Shown here: positions 3,602 through 55,791 of the stretch, piece after piece
Numbering within the stretch: position 1 is the stretch's first letter
Layout of the letters: every line of letters starts with the position of its first letter
Assembly: GCA_026991535.1 (NCBI GenBank)
Contig: JALXBH010000050.1
Coordinates: 14,380-78,379 of the forward strand
Source: Calditrichia bacterium
GTDB lineage: Bacteria; Calditrichota; Calditrichia; Calditrichales; J004
DNA length: 64,000 nt
Reading direction: 5' to 3'
Position numbers and translations under genes: made by a program
The notes under the pieces: generated by a model
Told to the model about the DNA's origin: nothing
Database searches by the model: none
The model's input: only the letters and a program-made list of their open reading frames with translations

Positions 3602-3620
3602 AAAATTATTCTCCTTAAAA

Positions 3621-9397: not shown

Positions 9398-11602
9398 TTA
9401 TTTGAGCAGCAGCATCTGCTTGCCCTGGCGTCCGAAATCCGTTTCTATCCGGTAGTAATATACGCCGCTGGCCAGACCGGAGGCATCAAAGTTGATGCTG
9501 TGCGCGCCGGCGGGCTGCACGCCGTTTTGCAAAACGGCCACTCTTTTACCCAGCGTATTGAAAATCTCCAGCTTAACCATACTTTTTTGCGGCAAATTGT
9601 ACTCGATCACCGTGGCCGGGTTAAAAGGATTGGGGTAGTTTTGGGCCAGGCGAAACTGTTCCGGAGTCAGCAGCAGTTCTTCCAGTGCCGTTGGCGTGCC
9701 GGTCTGGATGCGGGCGCGGATGTTGATGTCGCCATAGGCGGAAATATCGTTATCATAGTTGACGCCGTCCGAGGACGAATAGGAACGGCCCGTGGGGGTG
9801 CTGTAGTCAAAGGAGATGCCATAGGCCTTATTGATGATCTTTACGGCCACGAAAAAGTCCTGCCCGGCGCTGACGTTCATGGTTTGCGGCAGGGCGACAT
9901 GATACCAGCCGTTTTGCGCCGCCGAATCGGTCACGGAGGTAATCAGGGTACCGGGGGAGGTACCGTCAAAACTGTCATAAACCAACACTTCATAGGGAAC
10001 GTTATTATCCCAAAAGCCGACGTCCACAATGGTCAGCTTGCCTGCTTCCGGAGCGGTAAATTTAACGCCAGCCCAAATATCCGCCGGAGAAGATGGTCCA
10101 TAGGCCCGGTTGATGCCCAATTCATCATAGCTGATGGCGTAACCGTAAAGCTGACGCGGCGTAAGGTCGGCGGTCATAATAGCGCCGGAAGCGCTGATAT
10201 TGCTAACCGCCATATTGGTGGCCTTACCGTCGTAGTCCTTGCTGTTGGGCGTGCTGTTGTTATCAAACACCGTGTTGTTGCTGCTTCCCGGGTAGGGGTC
10301 GCCGTCGTCACCGCGATTGACGCTGTTATCGAGGTCGGCGTTGCCGTCCGCCTCTTCCAGATCCACCATTTTATGGGTTTCATCGTTATTCACCGGTCCA
10401 CCGCTCCAACGGTCCTTGCCCCAGCCTCTGCTTTCATCGATGTGAAAAATAAGCAGTCCGCTACCGTTCAGATATTGATCAAACCCTGTCTTCTGCCGGT
10501 TTTCAATCAGCCAGTAGCGGTCAAACTCATAGCCGTCTTCCCACATCAGGTAAAGGGATTTATTGGTTTCGGCCCGCAGAATCTGCACATTGCTCTGGGG
10601 GGAGGTGATCACCGTGGGCGTAACCCAGCCCAACTGATACTTGCTCCAGCCGATCATGTGTGCCGGTTTTTCCGAATGGCTGCCATCGCCGCCCCAACTA
10701 CCGCCGGCCATCAGCCCCCATTCGCCAATTCCCTCGGAAGCCTCATAATCCGGCCCGTCGCCGGAGCCGGTGCGGTCGTATAAATCGGGCAGACCCAGCA
10801 CATGGCCGAACTCGTGGGTATAAACGCCGATTTCCCGGATAGTGCCGTTACCGTTGCCCCCGCCCGATTCCTCGGGGCAGATAAAGTAGGCGCTCACCTT
10901 TATGTTATTACCGTCCGCGCCAACGTCATTGGTAGTGTACGCGTTGCTTCCCAGGCTGCTCATGTGCGGCCAAAAGCTGTCGTTACCCGGCCACCAGTCG
11001 GCGCCCGCGCCGGCATAGACCACGGCCACGGCGTCCACATAGCCGTCATCGTCCCCGGAATTGGGGATGCCGTCGGGGCCGTCGTTATCATACAGCGCGT
11101 AATCGATGGAATCATCCGCCGCCTGTACCGACTCATAAACAAAGCCGGTTACATTTTGAGGAAAGGTGCCGCCGTAGCCGTTGTTGTCTCCGGCGTAATA
11201 GCTTAAATCCTGCCCCGTGTGTACCCAGCCGTAAACCGTTCCGCTTAAGTCAAACTGTCCGTAGGAGATTTCATCGTAATACTCGGTCATGGTACCGGTG
11301 GGGTTGTTGTCAAACAGGTGATCCTGAAAGGTGTTTGCGGAAAATTGTCCCGCCAGGTCGCTAAAGTCGGAAAGGATCACCGGCAGTTTAAATACATCAC
11401 TGTTCAACCCTTTTTTAAAGGATTGGCGGGCCTCCTTGCGGGCCGCCATGCGTTGGGCCCAGGCCGGATCGCCGTATTTGTCCTGCAGGATATTTTTTTC
11501 CATCAATTTCCAGAAATTGGCGGGAAAGGTACCCTTGTTGGGTGGGTTGACCGCCGGAGAAAAAGATACCAGCAGTAAAAGAAAAAGGGTTAAATGACGC
11601 AT
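9398..11602 (-). CDS. M6-family (immune inhibitor A-like) zinc metalloprotease with a T9SS C-terminal sorting domain
   Basis: Signal peptide, HEFGHVLGLPDLYD zinc site, and C-terminal NYPNPFNP...GVYYYRI...LLLK tail. Confidence 0.8.
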   Translation of the reverse strand: MRHLTLFLLLLVSFSPAVNPPNKGTFPANFWKLMEKNILQDKYGDPAWAQRMAARKEARQSFKKGLNSDVFKLPVILSDFSDLAGQFSANTFQDHLFDNNPTGTMTEYYDEISYGQFDLSGTVYGWVHTGQDLSYYAGDNNGYGGTFPQNVTGFVYESVQAADDSIDYALYDNDGPDGIPNSGDDDGYVDAVAVVYAGAGADWWPGNDSFWPHMSSLGSNAYTTNDVGADGNNIKVSAYFICPEESGGGNGNGTIREIGVYTHEFGHVLGLPDLYDRTGSGDGPDYEASEGIGEWGLMAGGSWGGDGSHSEKPAHMIGWSKYQLGWVTPTVITSPQSNVQILRAETNKSLYLMWEDGYEFDRYWLIENRQKTGFDQYLNGSGLLIFHIDESRGWGKDRWSGGPVNNDETHKMVDLEEADGNADLDNSVNRGDDGDPYPGSSNNTVFDNNSTPNSKDYDGKATNMAVSNISASGAIMTADLTPRQLYGYAISYDELGINRAYGPSSPADIWAGVKFTAPEAGKLTIVDVGFWDNNVPYEVLVYDSFDGTSPGTLITSVTDSAAQNGWYHVALPQTMNVSAGQDFFVAVKIINKAYGISFDYSTPTGRSYSSSDGVNYDNDISAYGDINIRARIQTGTPTALEELLLTPEQFRLAQNYPNPFNPATVIEYNLPQKSMVKLEIFNTLGKRVAVLQNGVQPAGAHSINFDASGLASGVYYYRIETDFGRQGKQMLLLK

Positions 11603-11655
11603 GACGCACTCCTTTAAAATGTCCGTTTTTATTTTAGGGGATAAATTCGCTGTCT

Positions 11656-12090
11656 CTATTGTGCCGGGGTAAAATCCATAATCAGCGCCCGGGCCGGTTT
11701 TTTAAATTGTTTCCAGTACAGGTTCATCTCAAGCACGGTTCCGGGAGCCATTTCCCGAAGGCCGAGCATTTTTTTGTTGGCCGGCATGTCCATATCCAGC
11801 GCCTGGCCTTCCCGTCGTATAAAGTTTGGGAAGCACTCCACCAGCCGGCTGGTATCATCCAGGGTGCGCACCAGCAGGCTAAAGCGGTTGTCCGCAAGCC
11901 TTTTAACTTCTTCCACCTTTACCTTTACCGTTTCTTTTTTTTCCATGGAAACCGGTGAAGATTGAGCGGAAGCGGCGGGTTTTGTTTCCGTCTGCCGGGA
12001 CGAACAGGAAAGAGCCAAAAAAATTAATAGTACACCAAATAGAGAGACGCGCATAACTTTCTCCGTTTTTTTATTAAGTGTTCGTAGCAA
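11656..12090 (-). CDS. Hypothetical lipoprotein
   Basis: 144-aa ORF with lipobox (LALSCS). No recognised family. Confidence 0.45.
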   Translation of the reverse strand: MLRTLNKKTEKVMRVSLFGVLLIFLALSCSSRQTETKPAASAQSSPVSMEKKETVKVKVEEVKRLADNRFSLLVRTLDDTSRLVECFPNFIRREGQALDMDMPANKKMLGLREMAPGTVLEMNLYWKQFKKPARALIMDFTPAQ

Positions 12091-12254
12091 AAAGTCATCA
12101 ATTTAGTTGTTAAGGGCGATATTTCCGTGATAGCTGGCACGATGTGGCAAAATATACCGTTTATTTACAGAAATGAAATTTTCAACAAATAAAAGGCCTT
12201 TCCGTTATAAGTCATAAAACGCCGGCATACGACGCCCTGAAATATGTTCGGCGC

Positions 12255-13538
12255 CTAAACGCCCATTACCCGCACCAGCCACAGGCTCAGGTCGGGCCAG
12301 TAGGTGATAATCACCAGACTGACCAGCAGAATGATCAAAAAGGGGATGGTGGCCTTGTACAGCTTCATCACCGGTTGTTCAAAACGCATGGAGGCGATAA
12401 ACAGATTCATACCCACGGGCGGGGTGGAGTATCCGATGCCCAGATTGGCCAGAAAGATGATGCCCAGATGCACGGGGTCTATATTAAACTGGGCGGCGAT
12501 GGGAATGACCAGCGGGGCTACCACCATAATGGCCGAAAAGATATCCATCATGGCGCCAACCACCAGCAAAAAGAGATTGAGAACGATTAAAAATTCGAAG
12601 GGGGAATCCACATAGCCGCGCATGGCTTCCAGAATGGCCGAGGGAATTTCGGCGTCTATCAGATAATTGGCCAGACCGAGCGCCGCGGCCAGAATTACCA
12701 GGATGCCGCCCACCATAATCATGCTCTCCCGGGCCACGCGCAACAGGTCTTTTTTTAGAGAGATGTCCCGGTAGATAAAGACTTCGATGATCAGCACATA
12801 AAAAGCGGTAACGGCCGCCGCTTCCGTGGCGGTAAAAAATCCGCCATAGATGCCGCCGAGAATGATAAAGGGCAGGGGAATTTCCCAGATAGCCTCGCGG
12901 GTGCTTTGCCACAGGCGTTTTTTATCAAAGGCCAGGCTTTTCATACCCACGCCCTGCCGCCGCGCCGACCATACACTGTACACGGAAAGCAGACCCACCA
13001 TAAGAATTCCGGGCAGGATACCGGCGGTAAACAGTTGATCGATACTGGTAGAAGAAACCAGTCCGTATAAAATTATAGGCAGGCTGGGCGGAAAGAGCAG
13101 GCCGAGGTTGCCCGAGGCGGTGAGCATGCCCAGGCTGAATTTTTCCGAATAGTTATCGTCCAGCAGGGCCGGCAGCAACAGACCGCCCAGGGCCACGATG
13201 GTAACCCCCGAGGCACCGGTAAAGGCGGTAAACACCGCGCAGGAAAGCAGGGTGACGATGGCCAGGCTGCCCGGCATCCAGCCCATCAGCGCCCGGGAAA
13301 AGTTGACCAGACGCTGCGGCGTTTTGCTTTCGGCCAGCATATAACCGGCAAAGGTAAACAAAGGGATAGCCAGCAGAACCGGTTGCGAGGCCAGGCGATA
13401 TAGCTCGATGATGACCGCCGAGCTGTCGATATCGGCGCTGAAGAAGGCCATCAGGGCAATGGCCGAGATGATGACAAACAGGGGTGTGCCGAACAGGGCC
13501 AGCACGGTCAGGGCCAGGGCGATCAATAACACTTCCAT
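12255..13538 (-). CDS. dctM: TRAP transporter large permease subunit
   Basis: 427-aa polytopic protein with DctM-like sequence throughout. Shares 1 nt with the dctQ stop. Confidence 0.85.
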   Translation of the reverse strand: MEVLLIALALTVLALFGTPLFVIISAIALMAFFSADIDSSAVIIELYRLASQPVLLAIPLFTFAGYMLAESKTPQRLVNFSRALMGWMPGSLAIVTLLSCAVFTAFTGASGVTIVALGGLLLPALLDDNYSEKFSLGMLTASGNLGLLFPPSLPIILYGLVSSTSIDQLFTAGILPGILMVGLLSVYSVWSARRQGVGMKSLAFDKKRLWQSTREAIWEIPLPFIILGGIYGGFFTATEAAAVTAFYVLIIEVFIYRDISLKKDLLRVARESMIMVGGILVILAAALGLANYLIDAEIPSAILEAMRGYVDSPFEFLIVLNLFLLVVGAMMDIFSAIMVVAPLVIPIAAQFNIDPVHLGIIFLANLGIGYSTPPVGMNLFIASMRFEQPVMKLYKATIPFLIILLVSLVIITYWPDLSLWLVRVMGV

Positions 13539-14232: not shown

Positions 14233-15552
14233 ATGATTCCGGGAATATTATACCGCCAACCCCGTCGACTTTGGCAAACCCTGCGTCCGCGACACAAACT
14301 GGAAGCCTTGTTCCTGGCCCTGGTTCTTTTGGCCGTGCCGGCCACGCGCGCCCATGCCCTTTTCGGTCAATGGCTGACTGCGGGCATGGACAGCGGCCGG
14401 CTGCTCTTTTTGATCTTGTGGAGTTTCCTCACCCTGTGGGTGTTCAGCCAATGGCCGGTTTTTCATTTTTTGGCGGGTCGGCAAAAAGTGGTTGCCCTTA
14501 CTGCAACCGCGCCGGCCACGCCCCGGCAGGCCCGGCAGATTCTTTTTTTTGTTAGTCTGAAATATCAATGGGTCCTTATTTTGCTTTTCGTCCCACTATG
14601 GGCGGCCTTTTGGGCCCATGCCCCGGCCAGGGGTCTGCTGTTGGCGGTGTTGGCCACCATAGGCGCCGCCCTGACCTGGCGTTCGGTTTTATATCTCTAT
14701 CTGCAATGGCAACCCGCACCCTGGTGGATTCCCTGGTTGACGGCGTTTATCCTTATGACCGCCGGTTTTTATGCCTATTTTTTACAATGGGAGGTCTTCT
14801 TCCTGGCTTTTTTTTTATTGGCTACCGCCCTGTATGTTTATTTTCACCGCTCCGCGGAAATAGACATGCTGGCCTTTTCCACCCCTGTCCGGCGCATCCC
14901 GGAGGCCGCGCAACGTTATGCGCGGGCTCAAAAGATGAAAATGCGTCCCGCTCCCCGGGGACCCCTGCGGTCCTGGATATTCAAGGAACGTCTGGCCCGG
15001 GAGCGGCATCGTGCTTTTCGCCTTTGGCGGCGGATTATGTTTTTATGGACGGCGGTAAGCTTTTTTGCCCTGGCTTTGAGTGCGCTTGCCGAGAGAAACC
15101 TGATTATCTTCGGCCTGTCGCTTTTATATGTGTGGGTTTATTTTGGCGCCGGGTTTAATGAAAAGTACCGCGACCCGGAACTTCCCTGGCTGATACAGGG
15201 GACGCCCCTGCGCCTGCGCGATTGGTGGCTGGCCCGTCTTTGGGTGGAAGGGGGCGACGCCCTGTGGGGACTGCTCCTGGCTGTCGGCGCCTGGCTGGCC
15301 GGTGGTCTTCCGGTGGACTTATTGTATATCTATACCGCTACCCTGATTGTTCTGTGGCTCATTTTTTTCGCCGCCGTGGTTAACTTTCAAATCATGTTTT
15401 ATGACAATGTACGCATGGCCGGTTATGCCTTTCATTTTACCATGCTGCTGCTGGGCATCATGATTTTTAACTATCGTTTGGTGGGGCCGTTGATCGCCCT
15501 GGCTTTAATGTTGTTTTTTAGCTATAAAAACTATAAATATATAAACAGATGA
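14233..15552 (+). CDS. Polytopic membrane protein of unknown family (putative permease partner of the downstream ABC ATPase)
   Basis: 439 aa with many hydrophobic segments. An ATGA stop/start overlap links it to the ABC ATPase gene. Confidence 0.55.
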   Translation: MIPGILYRQPRRLWQTLRPRHKLEALFLALVLLAVPATRAHALFGQWLTAGMDSGRLLFLILWSFLTLWVFSQWPVFHFLAGRQKVVALTATAPATPRQARQILFFVSLKYQWVLILLFVPLWAAFWAHAPARGLLLAVLATIGAALTWRSVLYLYLQWQPAPWWIPWLTAFILMTAGFYAYFLQWEVFFLAFFLLATALYVYFHRSAEIDMLAFSTPVRRIPEAAQRYARAQKMKMRPAPRGPLRSWIFKERLARERHRAFRLWRRIMFLWTAVSFFALALSALAERNLIIFGLSLLYVWVYFGAGFNEKYRDPELPWLIQGTPLRLRDWWLARLWVEGGDALWGLLLAVGAWLAGGLPVDLLYIYTATLIVLWLIFFAAVVNFQIMFYDNVRMAGYAFHFTMLLLGIMIFNYRLVGPLIALALMLFFSYKNYKYINR

Positions 15553-16193
15553 TCACGATAGAAAACCTTTCGGTTTATTACGATAATATTCAGGCGTTGA
15601 ACGGCTTATCATTACACTGGCCCCCGGGCAGGTTTGTCGGGCTGCACGGGGCAAACGGCGCGGGCAAAAGTACACTGCTCAAGGTGTGTTCGGGTATCAT
15701 CCGCCGCTATGAAGGCCGGGTTTTGTTCAGGAAGCGCCCCGCCGGTGAAAATCTTTTTAGTCTAAGGCAACAAACCTATTATGTACCGGAGAACGCGGAT
15801 ATCCTGCCCTATATGAGCGGCAGGGAGTTTTTGCAGATGATCCGCGCCCTCTATGGCCAACCGGCGGCAGAGGAGCATCTGGAGTATCTTTTAACCTTAA
15901 GCGGATTAAGGGAAAAGGCGGATGATCCGGGCCATACCTATTCGCATGGCATGCGTCAAAAACTATTTATCGCCGCCGCCCTGATTTCCGGCGCGGGGTG
16001 CCTGTTTTTAGACGAAGCCTTTAACGGTGTGGATCAGGAAAGCACGGAAGCGCTGCTAAGCCATATCCGCGATGATTTTTTAAATCCCGATCGTCTGGTG
16101 GTGATCAGCTCTCATCAAAAAAGTTTTTTGGAAAAATGGCAGGACACAGCTTTTAAAATGAAAAACGGACAACAGGAGCAGGGCAGACAATAA
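15549..16193 (+). CDS. ABC transporter ATP-binding protein
   Basis: Walker A GANGAGKST, signature-like YSHGMRQK, Walker B LFLDEAFNGVD. Confidence 0.85.
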   Translation: MITIENLSVYYDNIQALNGLSLHWPPGRFVGLHGANGAGKSTLLKVCSGIIRRYEGRVLFRKRPAGENLFSLRQQTYYVPENADILPYMSGREFLQMIRALYGQPAAEEHLEYLLTLSGLREKADDPGHTYSHGMRQKLFIAAALISGAGCLFLDEAFNGVDQESTEALLSHIRDDFLNPDRLVVISSHQKSFLEKWQDTAFKMKNGQQEQGRQ

Positions 16194-17191
16194 TGACGGA
16201 GGCCACATTTATCAAACGTAACCGTTCCTTTTGGAAAGAGGCGGAAGAAATGCTTAACTCCAACCGGGAAATGGATGTGGAGACCCTGAGCACCCTCTAT
16301 ATACGTCTTACGGATGATCTCTCCTGGGCGCGCACCTACTATGCGGAAAGCACTCTGTGCGGCTTTCTGAACAATCTGGTAAGCAGGACCCATCAGCAAT
16401 TATACCGCAGCCGCCAGCACAACACCGCCCGCCTGATCCGTTTTTGGAAACGGGATGTGCCCCTGCTTTTTTTTCGCTATCGCGCCTATTTTGCCCTTTC
16501 CCTGTTGATTACCGCCCTGGCCACGGGCATCGGCTGGCTTTCCGCCGCCAATGACGACGGCTTTGTTCGGCTGATTTTAGGTGACGCCTATGTTAACATG
16601 ACCCTGGAGAACATCGAAAACAACGATCCCATGGCCGTTTATAAAAAGATGAATGAAACCGATATGTTTCTGGGCATAACCATCAATAATATCCGCGTTT
16701 CGTTATTTGCCTTTGTTTTCGGTCTTTTTTTCAGCGTGGGCAGCGCCTATATTCTGTTTAGCAACGGCATCATGCTGGGTGCCTTTCATTACCTGTTTTA
16801 TGCCGCGGATATGCTGGTGCCGGCCCTGCGCACCATCTGGATACACGGCATTATAGAGATTAGCGCCATCATCATCGCCGGGGGAGCGGGCTTGCTTTTG
16901 GGTTCGGGGTTTCTTTTTCCCGGCAGCCATACCCGCCTGCATTCCTTTAAACGGGCCGTGCGCGACGGTATGAAAATTACCATCGGGCTGATTCCCTTTT
17001 TTATCATTGCCGGCTTTCTGGAAAGTTTTGTTACCCGTCATACGGAAATGCCCCCGGCCCTGAACGCGGTCATTCTGGCCCTTTCGGCGGCTTTCATCTT
17101 TTATTATGTTTATTATTATCCGGGATATGTTCATAAACACCTAACGAGGAGGAGCCATGGAACAAACAACACAACTGCAAAAGGCGCGTAA
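16193..17191 (+). CDS. SpoIIM-like (DUF95) integral membrane protein
   Basis: The soluble N-terminus followed by a multi-TM C-terminal half resembles the stage II sporulation protein M family. The assignment rests on recall of family architecture and on gene context. Confidence 0.6.
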   Translation: MTEATFIKRNRSFWKEAEEMLNSNREMDVETLSTLYIRLTDDLSWARTYYAESTLCGFLNNLVSRTHQQLYRSRQHNTARLIRFWKRDVPLLFFRYRAYFALSLLITALATGIGWLSAANDDGFVRLILGDAYVNMTLENIENNDPMAVYKKMNETDMFLGITINNIRVSLFAFVFGLFFSVGSAYILFSNGIMLGAFHYLFYAADMLVPALRTIWIHGIIEISAIIIAGGAGLLLGSGFLFPGSHTRLHSFKRAVRDGMKITIGLIPFFIIAGFLESFVTRHTEMPPALNAVILALSAAFIFYYVYYYPGYVHKHLTRRSHGTNNTTAKGA

Positions 17192-18014
17192 CATAAGCGA
17201 AACGCTTAACGCCGCATTCTCATTTTTAAGGGAACAGTTTATTCCCCTGGCCAAGAACCTTTTATATGTGGCCGGACCGCTGATTATTCTTTCCGCGCTG
17301 CTCAACTATTTCTTTTTCAGTAAAATTTTTGGCGCCATGGTATCCAATCCTTCCGATCCCGCCACGACCTTTAATCTTATGTTTTCTCCCCAGTATCTGT
17401 TATTGATGTTTACACAGGTATTGGTGACCACGGTTATAGCTCTGATTGTCAATTTTTATGTACTCGACTATGTTGAAGGCACCGGCCCCACCAGCGTGGC
17501 CCGCATGTGGCAACTGGTGCTGAACAAGACGCCGATCTTTTTGGTGTACAACATAGTTATCTTTTTCCTGATGATGCTGGGTATGATGTTTTTTGTGTTG
17601 CCCGGTATCTATTTGGCCATTGCCCTTGTGTTGTTTATACCGGCGGCTATTCAGGAAAACCTGGGTTTGGGCGCGGCCATAAAGCGCAGCATCCACCTTA
17701 TCAAAAATTACTGGTGGTTTACACTGGGACTGATGCTCCTTTCCATCATTATTCTCTATATTGTCTATGTCGTAATAGAGCTGCCGTTTATGCTTTTGGG
17801 CGTTGGCGCGGTATTTTCCGCCGGTTCGCCGTTTTCCATGGAAGAATTTGGGAATATGTACGGCATCTATGTCGCCTTTGCCCAACTTAGCATGCTGATC
17901 TACGCCTTTATTTTTCTGGTGGAAACCGTCCATTTTTACAGCCAGCGTGAGAAAAAGGAAGCCAGTGGGTTGAGCGGGCAAATTGCCGAACTGGAATCCC
18001 CGGTGACGGAGTAG
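17157..18014 (+). CDS. Integral membrane protein, unknown family
   Basis: 285 aa, multi-TM. Strong AGGAGGAG Shine-Dalgarno before the ATG. Overlaps the upstream gene by 35 nt. Confidence 0.5.
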   Translation: MEQTTQLQKARNISETLNAAFSFLREQFIPLAKNLLYVAGPLIILSALLNYFFFSKIFGAMVSNPSDPATTFNLMFSPQYLLLMFTQVLVTTVIALIVNFYVLDYVEGTGPTSVARMWQLVLNKTPIFLVYNIVIFFLMMLGMMFFVLPGIYLAIALVLFIPAAIQENLGLGAAIKRSIHLIKNYWWFTLGLMLLSIIILYIVYVVIELPFMLLGVGAVFSAGSPFSMEEFGNMYGIYVAFAQLSMLIYAFIFLVETVHFYSQREKKEASGLSGQIAELESPVTE

Positions 18015-18015
18015 C

Positions 18016-18711
18016 ATGCCCAGGGGAATACTTATAGTCGCCCTTTTTGCCTTGATTATCTTCCCGCGAGCGGCTTTCGCCGGGGCAGAGCGGCATATAA
18101 ACAAAGCCTTTATCGACTCCCTGCGTCAGGAACGGCAGTCAGACTACCGCGAGCCCCAATCGCCCCTGGAACAGCTTTTTTCAAGGATTTGGGCCGAGGG
18201 CATGGAATGGCTTTCCAGGCATATTTTTAAAAAAGCAACCCGCGCCTTTTGGGAAGGAATGGGTTACCTGATTGCCATTCTTTTTTTGCTCTATCTGGTG
18301 CATATGGCGCTCAGCGGCCGTTTCCGCGCCCCCTTGCGCTATGAGCCGGGGATGGCCGGGGCGCCCCCGCTATCCGCCGAAAATCCGGAAACCATCGATC
18401 CCGAACGGATTGAGACCCTGCTGCAACAGGCCGTGGAACAGGGCAACTGGCCCCTGGCCGCTCATTTCCTGTATCTGCGCCTGCTTAAGGCTTTTATACG
18501 GCACAGCCTGATTAACTGGCAGGCCTCTAAAACCAACCATGACTATATCCGCGAGCTGGGCCCCGGTCCCCTGAGGGAACGTTTCCGCGGCGTAACGCAC
18601 CGTTTTGAGATGGTTTGGTATGGGGCGCGACCCCTGGACAGGGAAAGCTTTGGCGCGTTTCGGGATGAGTGTGCATGGCTGGAAAAGCACATGGAGAGGG
18701 CGCATGTTTAA
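18016..18711 (+). CDS. DUF4129-like membrane-anchored protein
   Basis: Signal/TM segments and a C-terminal helical region (WQASKTNHDYIRELG...RFEMVWYGARP) typical of DUF4129 proteins encoded next to MoxR. Confidence 0.55.
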   Translation: MPRGILIVALFALIIFPRAAFAGAERHINKAFIDSLRQERQSDYREPQSPLEQLFSRIWAEGMEWLSRHIFKKATRAFWEGMGYLIAILFLLYLVHMALSGRFRAPLRYEPGMAGAPPLSAENPETIDPERIETLLQQAVEQGNWPLAAHFLYLRLLKAFIRHSLINWQASKTNHDYIRELGPGPLRERFRGVTHRFEMVWYGARPLDRESFGAFRDECAWLEKHMERAHV

Positions 18712-19855
18712 ACAAAAGGGTTTTTTGCCTCTTGCGCTGGCCCTTCTTCTTCTGCTTGGCGCTCAGTTTTTTATGTCACCGCCGCCCAACTGGATGCCCA
18801 GCTTTTCCGGCTCTGATGAGATCCCTTATGGGGCCGATGTGTTTTATAAAAGTCTGACCTATCTCTTCCCCGGGCAGGAAATCCGGGTCAACCGGGAAAA
18901 TTTTTATACCGCCCTGGCGGATCAACCCGGGGATAAAAACCTGATCATGCTGGATTTAAAACCGGAAATGGATAACCGGGAGCGGGAGGTTCTGTTCGAC
19001 TGGGTGAACCGGGGCGGCATGGTCTTTATCGCCGCCGGCGTTTTTGATCGCGCCATGAGGGACAGCCTTGGGTTGGATATTGATATCGAACCGTTGACCG
19101 GCGACACCCTGGAGACCACGCCCGCCGATACCATGAACCTGAGCGGCGTCGGTTTGGCAGAGCGCTATTTTTCTTCCTTTGATTCCGGCAGCGCGCTTGT
19201 TTTGCGCAAGGATGCCCGGGGCCGGGCTATCTATTTAAAACAGGCCCATGGCCGGGGCTTTTTTTATCTGAATTTACGTCCCTTTGCCTTTGCCAACTAT
19301 AATATTTTAATGCGTAGCTCGCTGCGGTTTGTGGAAGAAGCCATGCTGCAACTGCCCCCGCGGACGGTGATTTGGGATGAATACCATAAATCCTTAAAAA
19401 AACAGGCGGCACAGACGCCCATGCGCTACATCCTTGACCAACCGGCCCTGAGAGCGGCCTGGTTTACCCTGCTGGCCCTGATCGCCTCGTTTCTTCTGCT
19501 TGGCGGAAGACGCAGGCAAAAGGCGATCCCGGTTATTGAAGCGCCGAAAAACGAGAGCGTTAATTATCTAAAAACCCTGGGGCGTTTTTCCGTGCGTCGC
19601 ACCAGTCCCCTAAGCCTGATAAAACTTAAAAAGAAGCTGGCCCTGGCCTGGTTGCGCCAGCAATACGGCCTGGATGCGCGGGCCCTGGATAAACAGGTGG
19701 CCGCGGAACTGGCGCGCCGGAATATTCTGACGGAGAAAGAGGCCCGGCAATGGGTGATGACCATGAGCATGGCCGGGAAGAAACGATTTTACCAGCCGGA
19801 TGAATTAAAAAAGATGGCCACGATCATTCAGAAAATTTATAGACCCCGTACATAG
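18704..19855 (+). CDS. DUF4350-like protein
   Basis: Start moved to MFKQKGFLPLALALLLLLGA (ATG 18704, an 8-nt overlap with the upstream stop). N-terminal signal/TM plus a late TM. The family call is from context and recall. Confidence 0.5.
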   Translation: MFKQKGFLPLALALLLLLGAQFFMSPPPNWMPSFSGSDEIPYGADVFYKSLTYLFPGQEIRVNRENFYTALADQPGDKNLIMLDLKPEMDNREREVLFDWVNRGGMVFIAAGVFDRAMRDSLGLDIDIEPLTGDTLETTPADTMNLSGVGLAERYFSSFDSGSALVLRKDARGRAIYLKQAHGRGFFYLNLRPFAFANYNILMRSSLRFVEEAMLQLPPRTVIWDEYHKSLKKQAAQTPMRYILDQPALRAAWFTLLALIASFLLLGGRRRQKAIPVIEAPKNESVNYLKTLGRFSVRRTSPLSLIKLKKKLALAWLRQQYGLDARALDKQVAAELARRNILTEKEARQWVMTMSMAGKKRFYQPDELKKMATIIQKIYRPRT

Positions 19856-19870
19856 AAAAGGCAGGTAGTA

Positions 19871-20821
19871 ATGAATTTAGACGCATTTAAGAAACATGTG
19901 GAACAGCTACGTCACAATCTGGAAACGGTGATAGTCGGTCAGCGGGAAGTTATGGATTTACTGCTGACGGCCCTGTTTGCCGACGGCCATGTGCTGATTG
20001 AGAGCGCGCCGGGCATGGCAAAAACATTGATGGCCAAGGCCCTGGCCCGGGTGGTGGACGCCGGTTACAGCCGCATCCAGTTCACCCCGGATCTGATGCC
20101 CTCCGATGTAATAGGCACCTCGGTGTTTAATATGAAAAAGAGTGAATTTGAATTTAAGGCCGGGCCGCTTTTCGGTCAGTTGATATTGATCGATGAAATA
20201 AACCGCGCGCCGGCCAAAACACAATCGGCCCTGTTTGAAGCCATGGAGGAGCGGCAAATTACCGTGGACGGACAAACCTATCCCCTGCGGGCGCCCTTTA
20301 TGGTGATGGCCACCCAAAACCCCATCGAACAGGAGGGGACCTACCGACTGCCCGAGGCGCAGTTGGATCGTTTTTTGTTTATGTTGAAGCCCCAATATCC
20401 ATCGGAAAGCGAGGAGACGGATATTCTGGAACGCTATTCCGGCGTCTCCAACAGGGAAGTTTTGCAGGCCACGGGCCATGTAATAACAGCCGAACAACTA
20501 AAGGAAACACAGCAGGCCCTGCACCGTCTGACCGTTCGCCGCTCCATTGCCGAATACATCGCCAAAATCATTCGCGATACCCGGCGGCACCCGGCCATCT
20601 ACCTGGGCGCCTCGCCCCGCGCCGGCCTCTATCTGGTTAAGGCGGCCAAGGTGTGGGCGGCCATGAACGGGCGCGACTATGTTATTCCCGATGATATTAA
20701 GTATCTGCTGGGCCCGGTATTGGAACACCGCATGATTCTAAACCCGGAAAAGGAACTGGAGGGGCTGAGCCTGGGCCAGGTGCTGGAGGAGATCGTCTCC
20801 GGAATAGAGGTGCCCCGTTAG
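19871..20821 (+). CDS. MoxR-family AAA+ ATPase
   Basis: Walker A-like ESAPGMAKT, Walker B LILIDEINRA, ATQNPIEQEGTYRLPEAQLDRF. Confidence 0.9.
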   Translation: MNLDAFKKHVEQLRHNLETVIVGQREVMDLLLTALFADGHVLIESAPGMAKTLMAKALARVVDAGYSRIQFTPDLMPSDVIGTSVFNMKKSEFEFKAGPLFGQLILIDEINRAPAKTQSALFEAMEERQITVDGQTYPLRAPFMVMATQNPIEQEGTYRLPEAQLDRFLFMLKPQYPSESEETDILERYSGVSNREVLQATGHVITAEQLKETQQALHRLTVRRSIAEYIAKIIRDTRRHPAIYLGASPRAGLYLVKAAKVWAAMNGRDYVIPDDIKYLLGPVLEHRMILNPEKELEGLSLGQVLEEIVSGIEVPR

Positions 20822-22152
20822 TGAAGCGTTTTTTTGATTTTATACCGCTAAGGCGCTTTTACGCCTCCCTGGGCGCGGTGGCGGTACTGTTTGTCCTGGC
20901 CTATATGTATCCGGCGCTGTACGGCGTGGCCCGGGGTACGCTGATCCTGACGCTCTTTGTTACCCTGGCCGACTATATCGTACTTTTTGCCCGGCCGCGT
21001 CCGCTAACGGCCGAACGCCGCCATGCCGCCCGCTTCTCCAACGGAGACCCCAATCCGGTTACGTTGGAATTGTGCAACCGCTTGTCACTGCCCTTAAGGG
21101 CCACGGTTTATGATGAAGTGCCGGATATTTTTCAGTTCCGCCATTCCGTGGGGCGCGTAGAGCTGAGCGGCGGGGAAAGCCGCCAACTGCGCTATGTGCT
21201 GACGCCGGGCCAAAGAGGTATGTTCCGCTTCGGGCGCATTAATATTCTGCTGCAAAGCGTTCTCGGCTTTATCGGCCGTTTTCAGCGGCAGGAGGCCGGT
21301 GGCATCATTCACGTGTATCCTTCATTCCAAAAGCTGAAAGCCTACGATTTAAACGCGCTGACGCTGAGCGGGCCCGGTGGACATCTAAAGCGGGTGCGTC
21401 GCGTAGGCACCACCATGGAGTTTGACCAGATCCGCGCTTATGTACCGGGCGATGATTTCCGCTTTATCAACTGGGCGGCCACGGCCCGCAAGCATCAGGT
21501 GATGGTGAATCAGTACCAGGACGAACAGGCCCAAAGCGTTTACATGATCATTAATAACAGCCGGGTGATGCACATGCCATTCGACGGTTTAAGTCTGTTG
21601 GATCATTCCATCAACAGCGCGCTGGTGACCTCGCATATTGTGCTGCAAAGAAAAGATCGCCCCGGTCTGTTGAGTTTTAGCGCAGGCCCGCCCCGTTTTT
21701 TGGCTGCTTCGGCCCACAACCGGCAAATGACGCGCATACTGGATCATCTTTACCGCCTGGAAACGGACCGCCGCGAGGCCGATTATGAAAGGCTGTATGT
21801 TTACATTCAGAAACATATTCCCCAAAGAAGCCTGATTATACTCTATACCAATTTTGAGTCCCGGGTGGCCCTGGAACGCGTTCTGCCGGTTCTGAGAGAG
21901 ATCAACCGCAAGCATGTGCTGATGCTGATCTATTTTAAAAATGAACAGGTGGAGAAACTGCGGGAAGGCAAAGCTCCCGATTTGACCGCCGTGCACACTC
22001 AGGTGATGGCCGAACAGTATCTTTATGAGAAGGAAGCCATTCGCCACATTTTAAAGCATCATGGTATCATGGCGCTGTTTGTCACGCCGTCCGGGCTGAC
22101 CATCGAGGTGCTGAACAGCTATCTGGCCATAAAGGCCCGGCATATAATTTAA
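20821..22152 (+). CDS. DUF58 (vWA-like) protein, MoxR partner
   Basis: GTG start overlaps the moxR stop by 1 nt. Two N-terminal TM segments and a conserved FDQIRAYVPGDDFRFINW motif. Confidence 0.8.
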   Translation: MKRFFDFIPLRRFYASLGAVAVLFVLAYMYPALYGVARGTLILTLFVTLADYIVLFARPRPLTAERRHAARFSNGDPNPVTLELCNRLSLPLRATVYDEVPDIFQFRHSVGRVELSGGESRQLRYVLTPGQRGMFRFGRINILLQSVLGFIGRFQRQEAGGIIHVYPSFQKLKAYDLNALTLSGPGGHLKRVRRVGTTMEFDQIRAYVPGDDFRFINWAATARKHQVMVNQYQDEQAQSVYMIINNSRVMHMPFDGLSLLDHSINSALVTSHIVLQRKDRPGLLSFSAGPPRFLAASAHNRQMTRILDHLYRLETDRREADYERLYVYIQKHIPQRSLIILYTNFESRVALERVLPVLREINRKHVLMLIYFKNEQVEKLREGKAPDLTAVHTQVMAEQYLYEKEAIRHILKHHGIMALFVTPSGLTIEVLNSYLAIKARHII

Positions 22153-22269
22153 AGCCGTTTGTCTTGCCCGGAGTGGTGAGAAAAGCGTATCTTACGGAGA
22201 GGGACAAACGATCCCGGCCTTTAAGCAGCTGTTTCCCCTGATTACAATAACCCGTTTAGAGAAGGCTCC

Positions 22270-23007
22270 ATGGAAAATATTGATATCGCCACCACCCAGA
22301 ATGTGGCCATAAATTATAAGCTGGCGGGCATTGCCGACCGCATGCTGGCCGTGATTCTGGACTGGATAATACAGGCCGCATATCTTATCACCCTTTTTAT
22401 TGTCGGGGCCTTTCTGCAAAGCGGCTTCGGGATGGGCATTGAAAGTTTTGGTCTTATGTCGCTGTTAACCCTGCCCCTGTTTCTTTACGAGGTGTTGTTT
22501 GAAAGCCTGATGAACGGCCAGACTCCCGGAAAGAAAATTCGCGGCATACGGGTTATGAGTACGGATGGCAGCGAAGCCAACATAGGGCAATTTATCATCC
22601 GCTGGTTGCTGCGTTTTGTGGACGTCACCTTTACCCTGGGAAGCGTGGGGCTGATTACCCTGTTTATCAATAACAGGGGGCAGCGCCTGGGCGATATCGC
22701 CGCGGGCACCACGGTGGTGCTTACCGGAGAAAAGGCCGATGTGGATGGCTCCTTTCTGGCGCAAAACGAGCCGAACGCGCCCCCCGTATGGCCCCAGGCC
22801 CGTCACATGAGCCCCAGGGAAGCGAGCCTGCTACGCCAGGTGTTGAACAGCCGGCCGGAATCGGATGAAGCCTATGCGGAGCTGTTGGAAAATACCGCCC
22901 GGATTTATGCGCAAAAGCTGAATATTGCCAACCCCTCGCCGGATAACCGGCAGTTTTTGGAAACCTTATTACGCGACTATCATAACAGCGGGGCGGAAGT
23001 CGGATAG
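22270..23007 (+). CDS. RDD-family membrane protein
   Basis: N-terminal RDD-type membrane domain (ADRMLAVILDWIIQ..., GQTPGKKIRGIRV) with a soluble C-terminal tail. Confidence 0.7.
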   Translation: MENIDIATTQNVAINYKLAGIADRMLAVILDWIIQAAYLITLFIVGAFLQSGFGMGIESFGLMSLLTLPLFLYEVLFESLMNGQTPGKKIRGIRVMSTDGSEANIGQFIIRWLLRFVDVTFTLGSVGLITLFINNRGQRLGDIAAGTTVVLTGEKADVDGSFLAQNEPNAPPVWPQARHMSPREASLLRQVLNSRPESDEAYAELLENTARIYAQKLNIANPSPDNRQFLETLLRDYHNSGAEVG

Positions 23008-23014
23008 CCGTCCT

Positions 23015-24211
23015 TTAACGTAACAGCACCATTTTCCGGCTATCGACAAAGGAAGCGCTTTTCAGCCTGTAAATATATACTCCGCCGGCCAGTCCGGAGG
23101 CGTCAAAACGCACCGTATGTTCTCCGGCATCCTCAACTTTATTAAGCAGGGTTGCTATTTTACGGCCGGTAATGTCAAAAACCGACAATTCCACTTTTTC
23201 CCTTTTCATTAAACGGTAAGGGATAAGCGTTTCCGGGTTAAAGGGATTGGGGTAGTTGGCATACAGTCTTGTCTGTTGCGGAAGGAATGGTTCGTTCTTG
23301 TCCAGACCCGTGGCAATGGCCGTGCGATAAACATAACCGCTGTCGGTGCCGACATAATAATAGTCCCGGCTGTCGATAAAGGTGGCCGTAATGCGTTCCC
23401 CTTCCGGCAAGGTGAGGATCCGTTTCCACGTAGAGTCTTTTCCCGAAAATTCATAGACCCTGCCGCTATATTGTGATTTGTACAGGATATCCTGATGGTT
23501 GACGTCAAACTTTCCCGAAATAGTCTTCCGGGTGTAAGCCTCCCAGCTTTGGCCGCGGTCGCGGGACACCAGGGTATCCACAAAGAGTTCGCCCCTGGAA
23601 TTGACGATAATATCATGGTTCTGAAGATCCCCAATATCACGTAAAAAATGGAAACTCCTCCCGCCGTCGGTGGACAGGGACAGATCCACCCCAATCCCCA
23701 TGGATATAAAGACATCCGATACATAGATTTCCCCCGAAGGTCCCAACGCCATAGCGATGATCTCCACCTGACTGGCGCCGGTGGTAACATCCGGCGTGTC
23801 CCAGCTTTGTCCGTCATCGTAGGAGTGATAAATATAGGATAAACCGTCCGTCGAATAACAGGTATCCCCCTTGGAGACGATCTCCCGGGCATACCGAAAA
23901 ACAGAATCCCATTGGCCGCCGAAATCTGTGGAGCGATAAGTCACCCACCAGGTGCTGGCAAAAAAGGTGTTATTCCCGTTGATGGTAAAATAAACAAAGA
24001 AGGAGTCCGGGAGTTGCCGGAATTCAGCCCAGTTCATGCCCGTACTGTCCGATTTATAGATACGGTCCGCTGAAAGAAGATAAAGATTTTGATCGCTATC
24101 CTCGGCAAAAGAGGTAATTTTCCCGCCGCTGCCGGGGGAAACTTTGTACCATCCTGTTTGCGCGGATAAAAAGGAAAGAGCGATAAACAGAAAAAAGGCC
24201 GTGGTTCGCAT
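23015..24211 (-). CDS. BNR/Asp-box beta-propeller protein with a T9SS C-terminal domain
   Basis: Start reset to MRTTAFFLFIALSFLSA (ATG 24211, GGAGG upstream). Repeated Asp-box motifs (SDSTGMNW, STDFGGQW, DDGQSW, STDGGRSF, SRDRGQSW). NYPNPFNP...GVYIYRL tail. Confidence 0.7.
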   Translation of the reverse strand: MRTTAFFLFIALSFLSAQTGWYKVSPGSGGKITSFAEDSDQNLYLLSADRIYKSDSTGMNWAEFRQLPDSFFVYFTINGNNTFFASTWWVTYRSTDFGGQWDSVFRYAREIVSKGDTCYSTDGLSYIYHSYDDGQSWDTPDVTTGASQVEIIAMALGPSGEIYVSDVFISMGIGVDLSLSTDGGRSFHFLRDIGDLQNHDIIVNSRGELFVDTLVSRDRGQSWEAYTRKTISGKFDVNHQDILYKSQYSGRVYEFSGKDSTWKRILTLPEGERITATFIDSRDYYYVGTDSGYVYRTAIATGLDKNEPFLPQQTRLYANYPNPFNPETLIPYRLMKREKVELSVFDITGRKIATLLNKVEDAGEHTVRFDASGLAGGVYIYRLKSASFVDSRKMVLLR

Positions 24212-24327
24212 GGGAACCTCCTTTTGCGTATAGGGGAAAACGGCGGGCTCGCCAAACTTTTTAAAGCTTGGGTAAATGTATGTTTTAACAAGGCCTTTTT
24301 CAAGGCGTTGTTTTCCCCCTTGTTTCG

Positions 24328-24987
24328 TTATGCCGCCGGGGGTAGCACATAAAAGTAAACGGCCATAAAGTGGCAAAAGCTTCCCAGCAAAACAAACAGA
24401 TGAAAGATGGCGTGATTGAGCTTTATTTTTTTGATGCTGTAGATAACGGCGCCCAGGGTATAGGCCGCGCCGCCGGCAAAAAGCCAGCGCAGTCCGTCCG
24501 AGGCCAGGCGATCCATCAGCGGTGAAATAACAAACACGATCAGCCAGCCCATAAAAACATACATCAGCGTGGAGAGGAGGTTGTAGCGGCCGGTGAAGAA
24601 GATTTTTAAAATGATGCCGGTCAGGGCCATGCCCCAGGAGAGACCGAAAATTATCCAACCGGTAGTCCCATGCAGGGTGACCAGCGTAAACGGCGTATAG
24701 GTTCCGGCAATCAGCACATAGATGGAGGCGTGGTCAAAAATACGCAGCCGCTTGCGGATCACAGGACTTTGCGCTTTGTGATAAAAGGTGGAGGCGCTAT
24801 ACAGCACGATCATACTGGCGCCGTAAATGGCCGCGCCGGCGATGTGCCAGGCCGTTCCGTACAGTGAGGCTTTGATCACCAGGCATATCAGGGCCACAAT
24901 GCTTAAGGCCAGGCCAAAGGCATGGGAAAGTACATTGATCCTTTCCTCCGCGGGGCTGTAAAAGACGGTTTCGTCACCGGTTTTCAT
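24328..24987 (-). CDS. Hemolysin III / PAQR family membrane protein
   Basis: Seven-TM protein with a family-typical HxxG N-terminus, DHASIY and HLFVLLGS motifs. Confidence 0.85.
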   Translation of the reverse strand: MKTGDETVFYSPAEERINVLSHAFGLALSIVALICLVIKASLYGTAWHIAGAAIYGASMIVLYSASTFYHKAQSPVIRKRLRIFDHASIYVLIAGTYTPFTLVTLHGTTGWIIFGLSWGMALTGIILKIFFTGRYNLLSTLMYVFMGWLIVFVISPLMDRLASDGLRWLFAGGAAYTLGAVIYSIKKIKLNHAIFHLFVLLGSFCHFMAVYFYVLPPAA

Positions 24988-25065
24988 GGGCGCTCCTTAT
25001 GCGGGAACGGGTCTAATGTCTGTTTACCGCAAGGAGTTATACAGACAGGCATAGTCCCGCGATCC

Positions 25066-26040
25066 CTATTTTTTCTCCAGAAAAAGGTTTTTCATTTTTT
25101 TGAGGATCTCCGGATTGGGCAGACCTTTTTTTCCCATAACCAGAAAGGTGAAGTTGCTGGCCATGATCTCCTCGGGATGAATAACATAGTTGGTGTTTCT
25201 GCCAATCATTTCCCAGAAAGCGGGAGTTTGATAGGCGTTGATCATCAGCGGCTTGTCCTCCTCCATTACGGGCACAGTGTATCCGTCCTTCTCTTCCACC
25301 CGCAACAGCACAAAACTCAGGCTTTGAAAAATCCCTCCCGTTTTGCTGACGTCATACACGGGCTGGGTGGCATAGATAAAGGGCGCCACGCGCAACACGC
25401 CTTCTTCGGAAGGCAGGTTGGCATAGCTGTTCATTTCCGGCGCGTCGGGATTAGTGATGTGGCGCTCAAACCAGGCTTCCGGCAAGGTCAATTCCGGGCC
25501 GGTTTCAAAACCGATGATTTTGTAAAAACGGGCCCGCATGGCGCGATTGTGCCGGGAATAGACGTGAAATATTTCATGAATAAAGGTCTCTTCCAGGGCG
25601 CCCCGTGCCGCCGACTTCAGCATGAGGTCGGTATAGACAATGGTATTCATGCGCGTGTAGGCCACTCCCACGCCGCCCACCTCGTCGCCGGTGGTGCGGA
25701 TGAGGATGATTTTTCCGGGCAGGTTGAGTTGCAGGGCCTGCAGCTGCGCATGGTGATTGCGGGCGAATTGTTCAAACATGGTTTTCAGGCTGTCCGGCCA
25801 GTTACGGACGTTCCGGGCCAAATGCTGCTTGTATTCCGCCACGCTTACCTCCCGGTCCGTGCGCATGGAAGCGGAGCGGTCGTAGGCGGAGACCCGTTGC
25901 ATGTAATCATCGTCTTTGATGACCAGGGCGGCGGCGGTGGCCGAATCGGCAAAAACCAGTTCGGTGCCTTCAATCAATTCAACGGCCCGAAGGGTGGAGA
26001 AGGACATTGTCAGTATCAACAGAAAAAGAATATAACGCAT
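25066..26040 (-). CDS. Secreted hypothetical protein with an HExxH motif
   Basis: Signal peptide. Single HEIFH motif in the context TFIHEIFHVYSRHN. No recognised family. Confidence 0.45.
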   Translation of the reverse strand: MRYILFLLILTMSFSTLRAVELIEGTELVFADSATAAALVIKDDDYMQRVSAYDRSASMRTDREVSVAEYKQHLARNVRNWPDSLKTMFEQFARNHHAQLQALQLNLPGKIILIRTTGDEVGGVGVAYTRMNTIVYTDLMLKSAARGALEETFIHEIFHVYSRHNRAMRARFYKIIGFETGPELTLPEAWFERHITNPDAPEMNSYANLPSEEGVLRVAPFIYATQPVYDVSKTGGIFQSLSFVLLRVEEKDGYTVPVMEEDKPLMINAYQTPAFWEMIGRNTNYVIHPEEIMASNFTFLVMGKKGLPNPEILKKMKNLFLEKK

Positions 26041-26055
26041 GGGGTTTTCCTCGCT

Positions 26056-26367
26056 TTAGTCGTCCGTGGCGGGGTGCCAAAGATAATGTTTCAGGTCAAT
26101 ACGACCGTTGGCGGCAAAGGTTACGCCCTCGCTCCGTAACAGGGCGCTTTGCACCTCTCCTCCGGCATGGGGCGGCAGGCTTATGCTTCCCCGGGAATTT
26201 ACAACCCGCCACCAGGGGATGTCTTCCGCGCGCGGGCAGGCATGCAGGGCATAGCCCACCATGCGCGGGGTAATGCCGGGCAGCGCGGCCGCGATGGCGC
26301 CGTAGGTGGAGATCCGTCCCCGGGGAATGTTTTTTACGCAGTCATAAACCGCCCGATAGCGACTCAT
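26056..26367 (-). CDS. Alkyltransferase-like (ATL) / MGMT-family DNA-binding protein lacking the acceptor cysteine
   Basis: MGMT C-terminal fold motifs (IPRGRISTYGAIA, RMVGYAL). PWWRVV replaces the PCHRV active site. Confidence 0.75.
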   Translation of the reverse strand: MSRYRAVYDCVKNIPRGRISTYGAIAAALPGITPRMVGYALHACPRAEDIPWWRVVNSRGSISLPPHAGGEVQSALLRSEGVTFAANGRIDLKHYLWHPATDD

Positions 26368-26469: not shown

Positions 26470-27075
26470 TTATTTTTTTTGCGCGCTTCCGGCATGGCGT
26501 TGGGCCAGTATCTCCTCGATCTCTTCCAGTTGGACGCCGCGCTGTTGCAGCAAAACCAAAAGGTGAAAAAGAAGATCGGCTGTTTCGTTTTTGAACAGCG
26601 CGTCGTTGTTGTCCATGGCCTCGATAATCAGTTCCGTGGCCTCCTCGCCCACCTTTTGGGCAATTTTGTTAACGCCCTTTTCAAACAGCGCGCTGGTATA
26701 GGATTGTGCGGATGGGTTTTTTTTCCTGTCGGCGATTATATCCTGCAATTTATATAAAAAACCCTTTGCCGAATGTTCATTAAAGCAGGTATCATTACCC
26801 GTGTGGCATACCGGTCCGGCGGGCCGGGCCTTTATCAACAGGGTATCCCCGTCGCAGTCGGCCACGATTTCACGGACGGTTAAAAAGTTACCGGAGGTTT
26901 CTCCCTTGGTCCATAGCCGTTTTTTCGAACGCGAATAAAAGGTAACCCGTCCTTCCCGTTCGGTTTTACTTAAAGCCTCCCGGTTCATATAACCCAGCAT
27001 CAGCACGCGCCCGTTGAGGGCATCCTGAATTATGGCCGGAACCAGACCATTGCCTTTGTCAAAATCTATACGCAT
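26470..27075 (-). CDS. hisI: Bifunctional phosphoribosyl-AMP cyclohydrolase / phosphoribosyl-ATP pyrophosphatase
   Basis: HisI N-terminus ([23 protein letters not shown]) fused to a HisE C-terminus ([20 protein letters not shown]). Confidence 0.9.
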
Positions 27076-27824: not shown

Positions 27825-27870
27825 GCTTCACCTTATTGTTCGGGCGGCGTTTATCCGCCGCGCTTTAAAC

Positions 27871-48758: not shown

Positions 48759-48782
48759 CCGCTTTAGCAGGAGATACTTTTG

Positions 48783-52463: not shown

Positions 52464-52481
52464 CCCGCGGGAGAATATGCA

Positions 52482-53495: not shown

Positions 53496-53570
53496 AAAAG
53501 GAGGTGCTTAATCTTAGCAAACGTATATAAAAACTTTACATGTTCCACTAACCAAACAGGAGGTTTCTCA

Positions 53571-55778: not shown

Positions 55779-55791
55779 GCTAAACATTCAG

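Follow-up and report, generated by a model that had tools for sequence, protein, structure and literature searches.

Genes for bacterial SpoIIM homologues adjoin genes for a vWA (von Willebrand factor type A) protein and an ATPase of COG0714 (Makarova, Galperin & Koonin 2015, PMC5898192), and archaeal clusters combining DUF4350, MoxR and vWA proteins have been predicted to encode a secretion or membrane-remodelling complex (PMC5898192). A membrane-proximal MoxR-vWA system has also been proposed for a related transglutaminase operon (Zhang and Aravind, PMC3495828). Here we describe a nine-gene cluster of kindred composition, at positions 14233-23007 of a 64,000-nucleotide stretch of DNA from a Calditrichia bacterium (contig JALXBH010000050.1), hereafter the window. 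Its genes, g1 to g9, encode a presumed permease and an ATP-binding cassette (ABC) ATPase, followed by SpoIIM-like, YciC-like, DUF4129, DUF4350, MoxR, DUF58 and RDD proteins. We propose, with moderate confidence, a model where the locus is a composite of a Calditrichota-only ABC pair (g1-g2) upstream of a widespread seven-gene module (g3-g9), in which MoxR and DUF58 would remodel the module's membrane complex. Pair and module are separable because each occurs without the other in most genomes sampled, and the ABC pair is probably an accessory, lineage-specific addition, not a core part of the module. What is new in the locus is the joining of an undescribed, phylum-restricted ABC pair upstream of a known but uncharacterised conserved cluster.

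Neighbourhoods of the Rv3689-Rv3695 type, from Mycobacterium tuberculosis, M. chelonae, Bacteroidota and Ignavibacteriota, hold the same seven families as g3-g9. In M. chelonae (BB28_RS01875-01900 and RS24340; orthologous to Rv3689-Rv3695 of M. tuberculosis) these genes are clustered and co-regulated (expression table, PMC8191103). In the window clade a translationally coupled ABC pair stands upstream of this arrangement and, unlike most module loci, the window has its RDD gene downstream of the DUF58 gene, not divergently upstream.

Archaeal neighbourhoods of arCOG01314 (DUF4350) share with the window cluster a core of DUF4350, MoxR (COG0714) and a vWA-type protein, with products predicted to be mostly membrane-bound or extracytoplasmic (PMC5898192). 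The partners differ, however: Ig-like proteins of S-layer type (arCOG02884 and others) occur in the archaeal neighbourhoods and were not seen in the window cluster, where SpoIIM-like, YciC-like, DUF4129 and RDD proteins take their place. The Bat (Bacteroides aerotolerance) operon (MoxR-DUF58-BatA-BatB-BatC-BatD-BatE), for which stress phenotypes have been reported (PMC11834572), likewise belongs to the FCB group and has a MoxR (MRP-type) gene followed by DUF58, with membrane-associated partners. Unlike the Bat operon, the window cluster has no Pfam match to VWA (BatA/BatB) or TPR domains in its nine products, and RDD follows DUF58. The MoxR-vWA-YebA transglutaminase system has the same MoxR and DUF58/vWA pair at the membrane. 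A DUF4129 domain forms the C-terminal end of YebA-type transglutaminase proteins, as it does of the g5 product. In contrast to that system, Pfam finds no transglutaminase or peptidase domain in the nine products, only DUF4129.

The g3-g9 module

The module is found far beyond Calditrichota. There are more than 6,293 homologues of g3, many of them 50-55% identical, in Flavobacteriia, Cytophagia, Rhodothermales, Ignavibacteriaceae and Calditrichota. Three loci carry g3-g9 without the ABC pair and with g3-g8 in identical order, in another Calditrichota genome (L019), in Pontibacter actiniarum (L020) and in a metagenome-assembled genome of the Ignavibacteriaceae (L021). A metagenome scan returned 572 relatives, of which the best 80 loci were compared with the window proteins by tblastn. 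Genes g4-g8 follow g3 in order in 34 of the 39 independent metagenomic loci with enough downstream sequence, and this recurrence is more than chance; a g4 homologue holds the same position in 67 of the 80. The RDD gene, g9, is the mobile member of the module, lying divergently upstream of g3 in 25 loci and downstream, as in the window, in 6, and not being seen in 2. Identity to the window proteins is highest, by median, for g7 (54%) and g3 (51%), followed by g8 (38%), g9 (35%), g5 (28%), g4 (26%) and g6 (25.5%). The module thus described ranks among the more widespread conserved clusters without an assigned function; it occurs in Bacteroidota and Calditrichota and as far afield as mycobacteria, M. 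tuberculosis among them.

Much of this had been anticipated. The original prediction, made from the sequence alone, described a SpoIIM/DUF4129/DUF4350/RDD neighbourhood as recurrent in several phyla, with no known biochemical function; the neighbourhood is present in L019-L021, in the metagenomic loci and in the mycobacterial table (PMC8191103), and our literature search found no functional study of the module. Nine co-directional genes were indeed found at the coordinates it gave, with the junctions it described. Its family assignments also stood, since ABC, SpoIIM (PF01944), DUF4129, DUF4350, MoxR (AAA_3), DUF58 and RDD, the last six in adjacent genes, all exceed their Pfam gathering scores. 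The expected partnership of MoxR with DUF58 is borne out by adjacent genes that overlap by 1 nt and by a DUF58 match of 4.9e-16. A 439-aa protein, g1, had been placed in no recognisable family, and it matches nothing in Pfam or NCBIfam, with just 68 representatives in a set of 1.84 billion proteins. The count of membrane proteins needs correction: six had been proposed, and hydropathy gives seven, the DUF58 protein having an N-terminal two-helix anchor.

The first gene of the module, g3 (16193-17191, 332 aa; like all nine, on the + strand), encodes a protein that matches the whole Pfam SpoIIM model (PF01944, 1.9e-38), the family of SpoIIM in the Bacillus subtilis engulfment complex, DMP. Unlike that protein, it carries an extra N-terminal domain of ~95 residues (DUF8413), which is cytoplasmic and helical. 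Nor does the cluster hold SpoIID or SpoIIP; its MoxR/DUF58 context is that of SpoIIM homologues in non-sporulating bacteria (PMC5898192). Together with MoxR, g3 is the most conserved member of the module. Its AlphaFold2 model is confident (mean predicted local distance difference test, pLDDT, 84.7), and a Foldseek search of that model against the PDB gave no significant structural neighbour (best E 0.52). An alignment of 67 sequences places invariant polar residues in or near the membrane helices (N165, N166, H218, E222, E277, T281 and R282) and reveals a highly conserved periplasmic loop (R126, G130, D131, Y133, T137, P146 and Y150). Because g3 is conserved nearly as strongly as MoxR and keeps invariant polar residues (H218, E222, E277 and R282) in its membrane helices, the alignment suggests a catalytic or transport core instead of a passive scaffold.

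Three further products are set in the membrane between g3 and MoxR. The polytopic product of g4 (17157-18014, 285 aa) has ~6 helices, a GPDPase_memb match just under the cut-off (PF10110, 1.1e-6) and a YciC-family match of 3.6e-4; its orthologues carry the tags UPF0259, GPDPase_memb or DUF7847. By hydropathy both g5 and g6 encode bitopic proteins. That of g5 (18016-18711, 231 aa) would lead from a signal peptide or anchor, through a short and charged periplasmic stretch and a single transmembrane helix, to a cytoplasmic C-terminal DUF4129 domain (PF13559, 6.9e-12, residues 152-217). The product of g6 (18704-19855) matches DUF4350 in Pfam at 1.9e-8, and the same model, PF14258, is matched by all seven g6 orthologues (best 8.4e-15); an N-terminal signal or anchor would be followed by a periplasmic domain of ~220 residues, a single membrane-spanning helix and, in the cytoplasm, a highly basic tail of 114 residues. 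At the end of the cluster, g9 (22270-23007, 245 aa) encodes an RDD protein (PF06271, 5.3e-21) with three helices and a C-terminal domain of ~110 residues. One RDD protein has been described as a Na+/H+ antiporter (PMC5996927).

The energy-using part of the module would be the product of g7 (19871-20821, 316 aa), a soluble MoxR-type AAA+ ATPase (AAA_3, 2.3e-64; AAA_lid_2, 3.4e-25). Its Walker A (GMAKT) and Walker B (LIDE) motifs are intact and its closest solved chain is 2R44 (5.9e-80). The adjacent g8 (20821-22152, 443 aa, GTG start) encodes the vWA-like DUF58 protein (PF01882), in which hydropathy places a hairpin of two helices at the N-terminus as an anchor, ahead of a large cytoplasmic body. 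A sequence search of the PDB found no solved relatives of the g3, g5, g6 or g8 products, and hhalign found no significant similarity, such as a common docking domain would give, among the cytoplasmic domains of g3, g5, g6 and g9.

We propose that the polytopic proteins g3, g4 and g9, together with the bitopic g5 and g6, which would expose a periplasmic domain, form a complex in the cytoplasmic membrane. The membrane-tethered DUF58 protein would recruit a soluble MoxR hexamer to the inner face of the membrane, where MoxR would spend ATP on assembling, remodelling or extracting parts of that complex. MoxR would thus act as a chaperone or remodeller, as in other MoxR-vWA pairs, in the service of an envelope or membrane-homeostasis function, and would not itself be a transport ATPase.

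The composition of the module varies in places. The Calditrichota locus without the pair, L019, has two tandem g4-like genes and a CpeT-family gene between DUF58 and RDD (11043-12845 and 17285-17929). Two metagenomic variants carry inserts between the DUF4350 and MoxR genes, of ~2.8 kb in L025 (11818-14636) and ~1.3 kb in L029 (5414-6714).

The ABC pair of Calditrichota

The second gene of the cluster, g2 (15549-16193, 214 aa), encodes a nucleotide-binding domain and nothing else (PF00005 ABC_tran, 4.9e-24). Its best NCBIfam matches, DrrA, CcmA and GldA, all fall far under their cut-offs, and the solved domains closest to it are those of ABCA3/4/1/7 (1e-30 to 1e-27) and NosF (2e-23). Walker A (GANGAGKST), Walker B with the catalytic Glu (LFLDEA), the D-loop (NGVD) and the H-loop (SSH) are all intact. 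Two other motifs set the family apart and are invariant in its alignment (L001-L018): the Q-loop carries Glu instead of Gln (APED/VPEN), and the signature reads YSHGM(R)QK where LSGGQ is expected. We assign g2 by sequence to the ABCA/NosF/DrrA/CcmA-like (ABC-2) class of ATPases. The ABCA, NosF and DrrA classes pair with ABC-2 (type V) permeases.

The gene in front, g1 (14233-15552, 439 aa), encodes what is presumably the permease of the pair, on the strength of its invariant pairing with g2. Hydropathy predicts ~6+6 transmembrane helices, a basic loop of 60 residues between the two halves and almost no periplasmic loops. Relatives are few: an exhaustive HMMER search of the 1.84 billion representative proteins returned the 68 representatives, nearly all of ~440 aa, and 185,579 species genomes, when scanned, gave 12 g1 loci, every one in Calditrichota. 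A word-indexed profile search intended to deepen the alignment yielded only 6 proteins, and a g1 profile found nothing relevant among PDB sequences. The N-terminal and C-terminal halves align in register (P=0.014), which is suggestive of a duplication, not proof of one. Both halves also put a conserved motif on the same segment of the Escherichia coli ABC-2 permease YadH, without significance. We read the g1 product as a putative fused double permease of the ABC-2 type, which a dimer of g2 would serve.

In every one of the 18 loci, from at least 12 species, the g2 homologue directly follows the g1 homologue. Most of these pairs have no module nearby: stand-alone pairs occupy L005, L006 and L010-L018, in ~eight Calditrichota species. 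Their neighbours vary (MgsA, DUF6913, a C1-like peptidase, LexA/DinB, SPFH proteins), and no conserved third partner was found among them. The module follows the pair only in the window clade (L001, L002/L003 and L008; another locus of this clade, L007, is truncated) and in one distant lineage, L009.

The pair resembles ABC-2, or type V, exporters (DrrAB, NosFY, GldAFG and the ABCA lipid transporters) in the class of its ATPase domain, in its strictly adjacent permease gene and in having no binding-protein gene. It departs from them in the g1 protein, which at 439 aa and with ~12 helices has no significant match to an ABC-2 model, in the Q-loop Glu and YSHGM of g2, and in its confinement to Calditrichota. 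Because no binding-protein gene stands beside the pair in any locus and g1 has almost no periplasmic loops, we read g1/g2 as a putative exporter or flippase of a hydrophobic substrate. Together g1 and g2 are a small, previously undescribed and unannotated ABC family restricted to Calditrichota, which would merit its own family definition.

One machine or two units

The original prediction went further than its family assignments and saw in the locus an envelope machine with two different ATPases. The families and the MoxR/DUF58 pair on which it drew stand; the joining of the ABC pair to the module fares less well. The pair is separable, and its co-occurrence with the module did not extend to the wider neighbourhood survey: among the 43 metagenomic module loci with at least 2.1 kb of upstream sequence, none carries a homologue of g1 or g2 ahead of g3 in the same direction. 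It is therefore useful to weigh how far the two parts may belong together.

All nine genes are probably co-transcribed in the window clade because the stop and start codons of g2 and g3 overlap, and a functional link between pair and module is possible. The strongest form of such a link is that all nine products make up a single integrated envelope machine with two ATPases, for example a GldAFG-style assembly of g1/g2 with DUF4350 whose assembly or gating MoxR-DUF58 would control. We consider this unlikely, while noting that several features speak for it. The g2/g3 overlap recurs in a relative (4 nt in L002; L001 has an 8-nt gap instead), the nine-gene arrangement persists in relatives down to 64% g1 identity, and the window-clade g2 alone lacks a C-terminal tail of ~25 residues that all other g2 homologues keep. 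The ATPase class of g2 is one that pairs with ABC-2 permeases, and archaeal DUF4350 has been likened by HHpred to GldG, an accessory subunit of an ABC-2 transporter (PMC5898192). However, hmmscan against NCBIfam and Pfam at E<=1 matched neither GldG (TIGR03521) nor ABC_transp_aux in any of the seven g6 orthologues. L019, itself from Calditrichota, has the module without the pair, and the ~eight species with stand-alone pairs show the converse. In the distant lineage, L009, g2 and g3 are separated by a spacer of 229 nt (2443-2671) with a hairpin of -24.9 kcal/mol (z = -3.0) and a U-rich tract behind it, together a possible terminator or attenuator. Along with the lack of any co-directional ABC gene in front of g3 in the 43 metagenomic loci, these observations argue for two units on one probable transcript.

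A related but less probable reading, which we regard as doubtful, has the ABC pair truly working together with the module: g1 and g2 would form a new ABC-2-like family of lipid or polymer exporters, the GldG-like DUF4350 protein would be its periplasmic accessory, and MoxR-DUF58 would set its assembly or activity via the SpoIIM-like, YciC-like and RDD proteins. If this were true, the window clade would keep in one operon what other phyla encode in trans, and the locus would give a first functional handle on the Rv3689-Rv3695-type module, as the accessory of an envelope ABC exporter. Even on our composite model, that the module is naturally joined to a part whose mechanism is known may be a clue, and it hints weakly at export or flipping of a hydrophobic envelope component. 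That clue is limited by the separability of the pair and its confinement to one phylum.

The composite model has its own difficulties, and the following points weigh against it. Neighbour-joining trees of both g1 and g2 place module-linked pairs apart from the stand-alone clade, and pair and module have stayed adjacent in L009 even though its g1 is only ~28% identical to that of the window; both observations also speak for the integrated machine, and the link between pair and module may be real and ancestral in Calditrichota. Those 80 loci from metagenomes are the top-scoring relatives, at 47-55% identity, a sample biased to FCB-group bacteria. The part assigned to the DUF58 protein is complicated by its MIDAS motif (metal ion-dependent adhesion site), which is degenerate in seven of seven orthologues from four lineages, with I(D/N)xGRxM for DxSxS and both serines gone. 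Because the motif is degenerate, the usual metal-dependent binding by vWA domains is in doubt and may not apply to g8. For g1, three of 44 family members give matches to ABC2_membrane or ABC2_membrane_5 that stay below threshold (5e-4, 1.6e-3), and the comparison of its halves with YadH in hhalign is not significant (E 0.33 and 0.67). The AlphaFold2 model of g1, built from five sequences, is poor (pLDDT 50), and a Foldseek search with it returned nothing under E 0.24, with NosY in 47th place (E 4.9). Finally, the formation of the complex, the client of MoxR and the substrate of the ABC pair are points that we infer from sequence.

It is very unlikely that the module serves gliding motility or the type IX secretion system (T9SS) as an accessory. 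Flanking genes do encode Por_Secre_tail sorting domains, GldA is among the better NCBIfam matches of g2 (TIGR03522, E 5.5e-23), and the DUF4350-GldG link has been published (PMC5898192). However, g2 scores only 81.9 bits with the GldA model, against a cut-off of 402.6, and no GldF or GldG match was found among the products in Pfam or NCBIfam. The T9SS cargo genes lie on the opposite strand and differ between relatives. To our knowledge, mycobacteria have no T9SS. The same module is nevertheless present there (PMC8191103).

We find an anti-phage or conflict role for the cluster, based on MoxR and vWA, hardly credible: ternary conflict systems of the MoxR-vWA kind do exist (PMC7159879), and g7 has a bpMoxR match in Pfam (3.2e-12), but the products contain no beta-propeller, effector or other conflict-type domain, the context is a housekeeping one, conservation is strict and vertical-looking with ~50% identity across phyla, and composition is without obvious anomaly over the region (GC content 0.48-0.56). 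As a defence-system candidate the cluster was rejected, PADLOC giving only generic P-loop/AAA matches (mad3, DolB and others).

Gene layout and genomic surroundings

The nine open reading frames (ORFs) fill 14233-23007 with little space between them. Overlaps join g1 to g2 (4 nt, ATGA), g2 to g3 (1 nt, TAATG), g3 to g4 (35 nt), g5 to g6 (8 nt) and g7 to g8 (1 nt, TAG/GTG). The g5/g6 figure takes the ATG at 18704 as the start of g6, which gives a protein of 383 aa; the ORF itself opens at a TTG, at 18605. Gaps separate g4 from g5 (1 nt), g6 from g7 (15 nt, a junction that the original prediction did not list) and g8 from g9 (117 nt). An overlap of 23-41 nt between g3 and g4 was found again in L001, L002, L020 and L021, and the N-terminus of g1 is invariant among close homologues; because both features recur in relatives, the less obvious choices of start codon are supported. 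Scans of the cluster for sigma-70 promoters and for terminators gave promoter-like sites at the level of shuffled sequence, and the terminator-like sites listed were intragenic.

The upstream border of the cluster is a divergent tripartite ATP-independent periplasmic (TRAP) transporter (DctQ/DctM), and the downstream border is a convergent gene for a T9SS cargo protein. Por_Secre_tail domains occur at three places in the window: in an M6 peptidase with a lectin-like domain (9398-11602, - strand), in a 547-aa protein without other domain (23015-24658, - strand) and in a CBM20/pullulanase-X25 starch-binding protein (53571-55778, + strand). The flanking genes with this domain are in keeping with a bacterium of the FCB group, and NCBI MAGs labelled Caldithrix abyssi contain the exact proteins. 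Because histidine-biosynthesis, glmS-like and guaA-like genes lie in the window, the surroundings of the cluster point to an ordinary, housekeeping part of a chromosome. The glmS-like and guaA-like genes are at 1775-5174 (- strand); the histidine genes belong to a run of same-strand ORFs at 26470-33393 (- strand), of which the two scanned are HisIE-like (PRA-CH and PRA-PH) and HisF/HisA-like.

Farther downstream, 42575-57723 (+ strand) is a starch-utilisation cluster with an alpha-amylase, a PpiC-type rotamase, a SusC-like TonB-dependent receptor, the T9SS starch-binding protein and an SSF symporter. Within it, a 1,227-aa ORF (48780-52463) has no Pfam match at E<=1e-5, and the same is true of a 605-aa ORF at 38774-40591 (- strand). 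Just beyond the nine-gene cluster, two long ORFs overlap on opposite strands, one at 24922-26139 (+ strand, 405 aa, no Pfam match) and the other at 25066-26040 (- strand).

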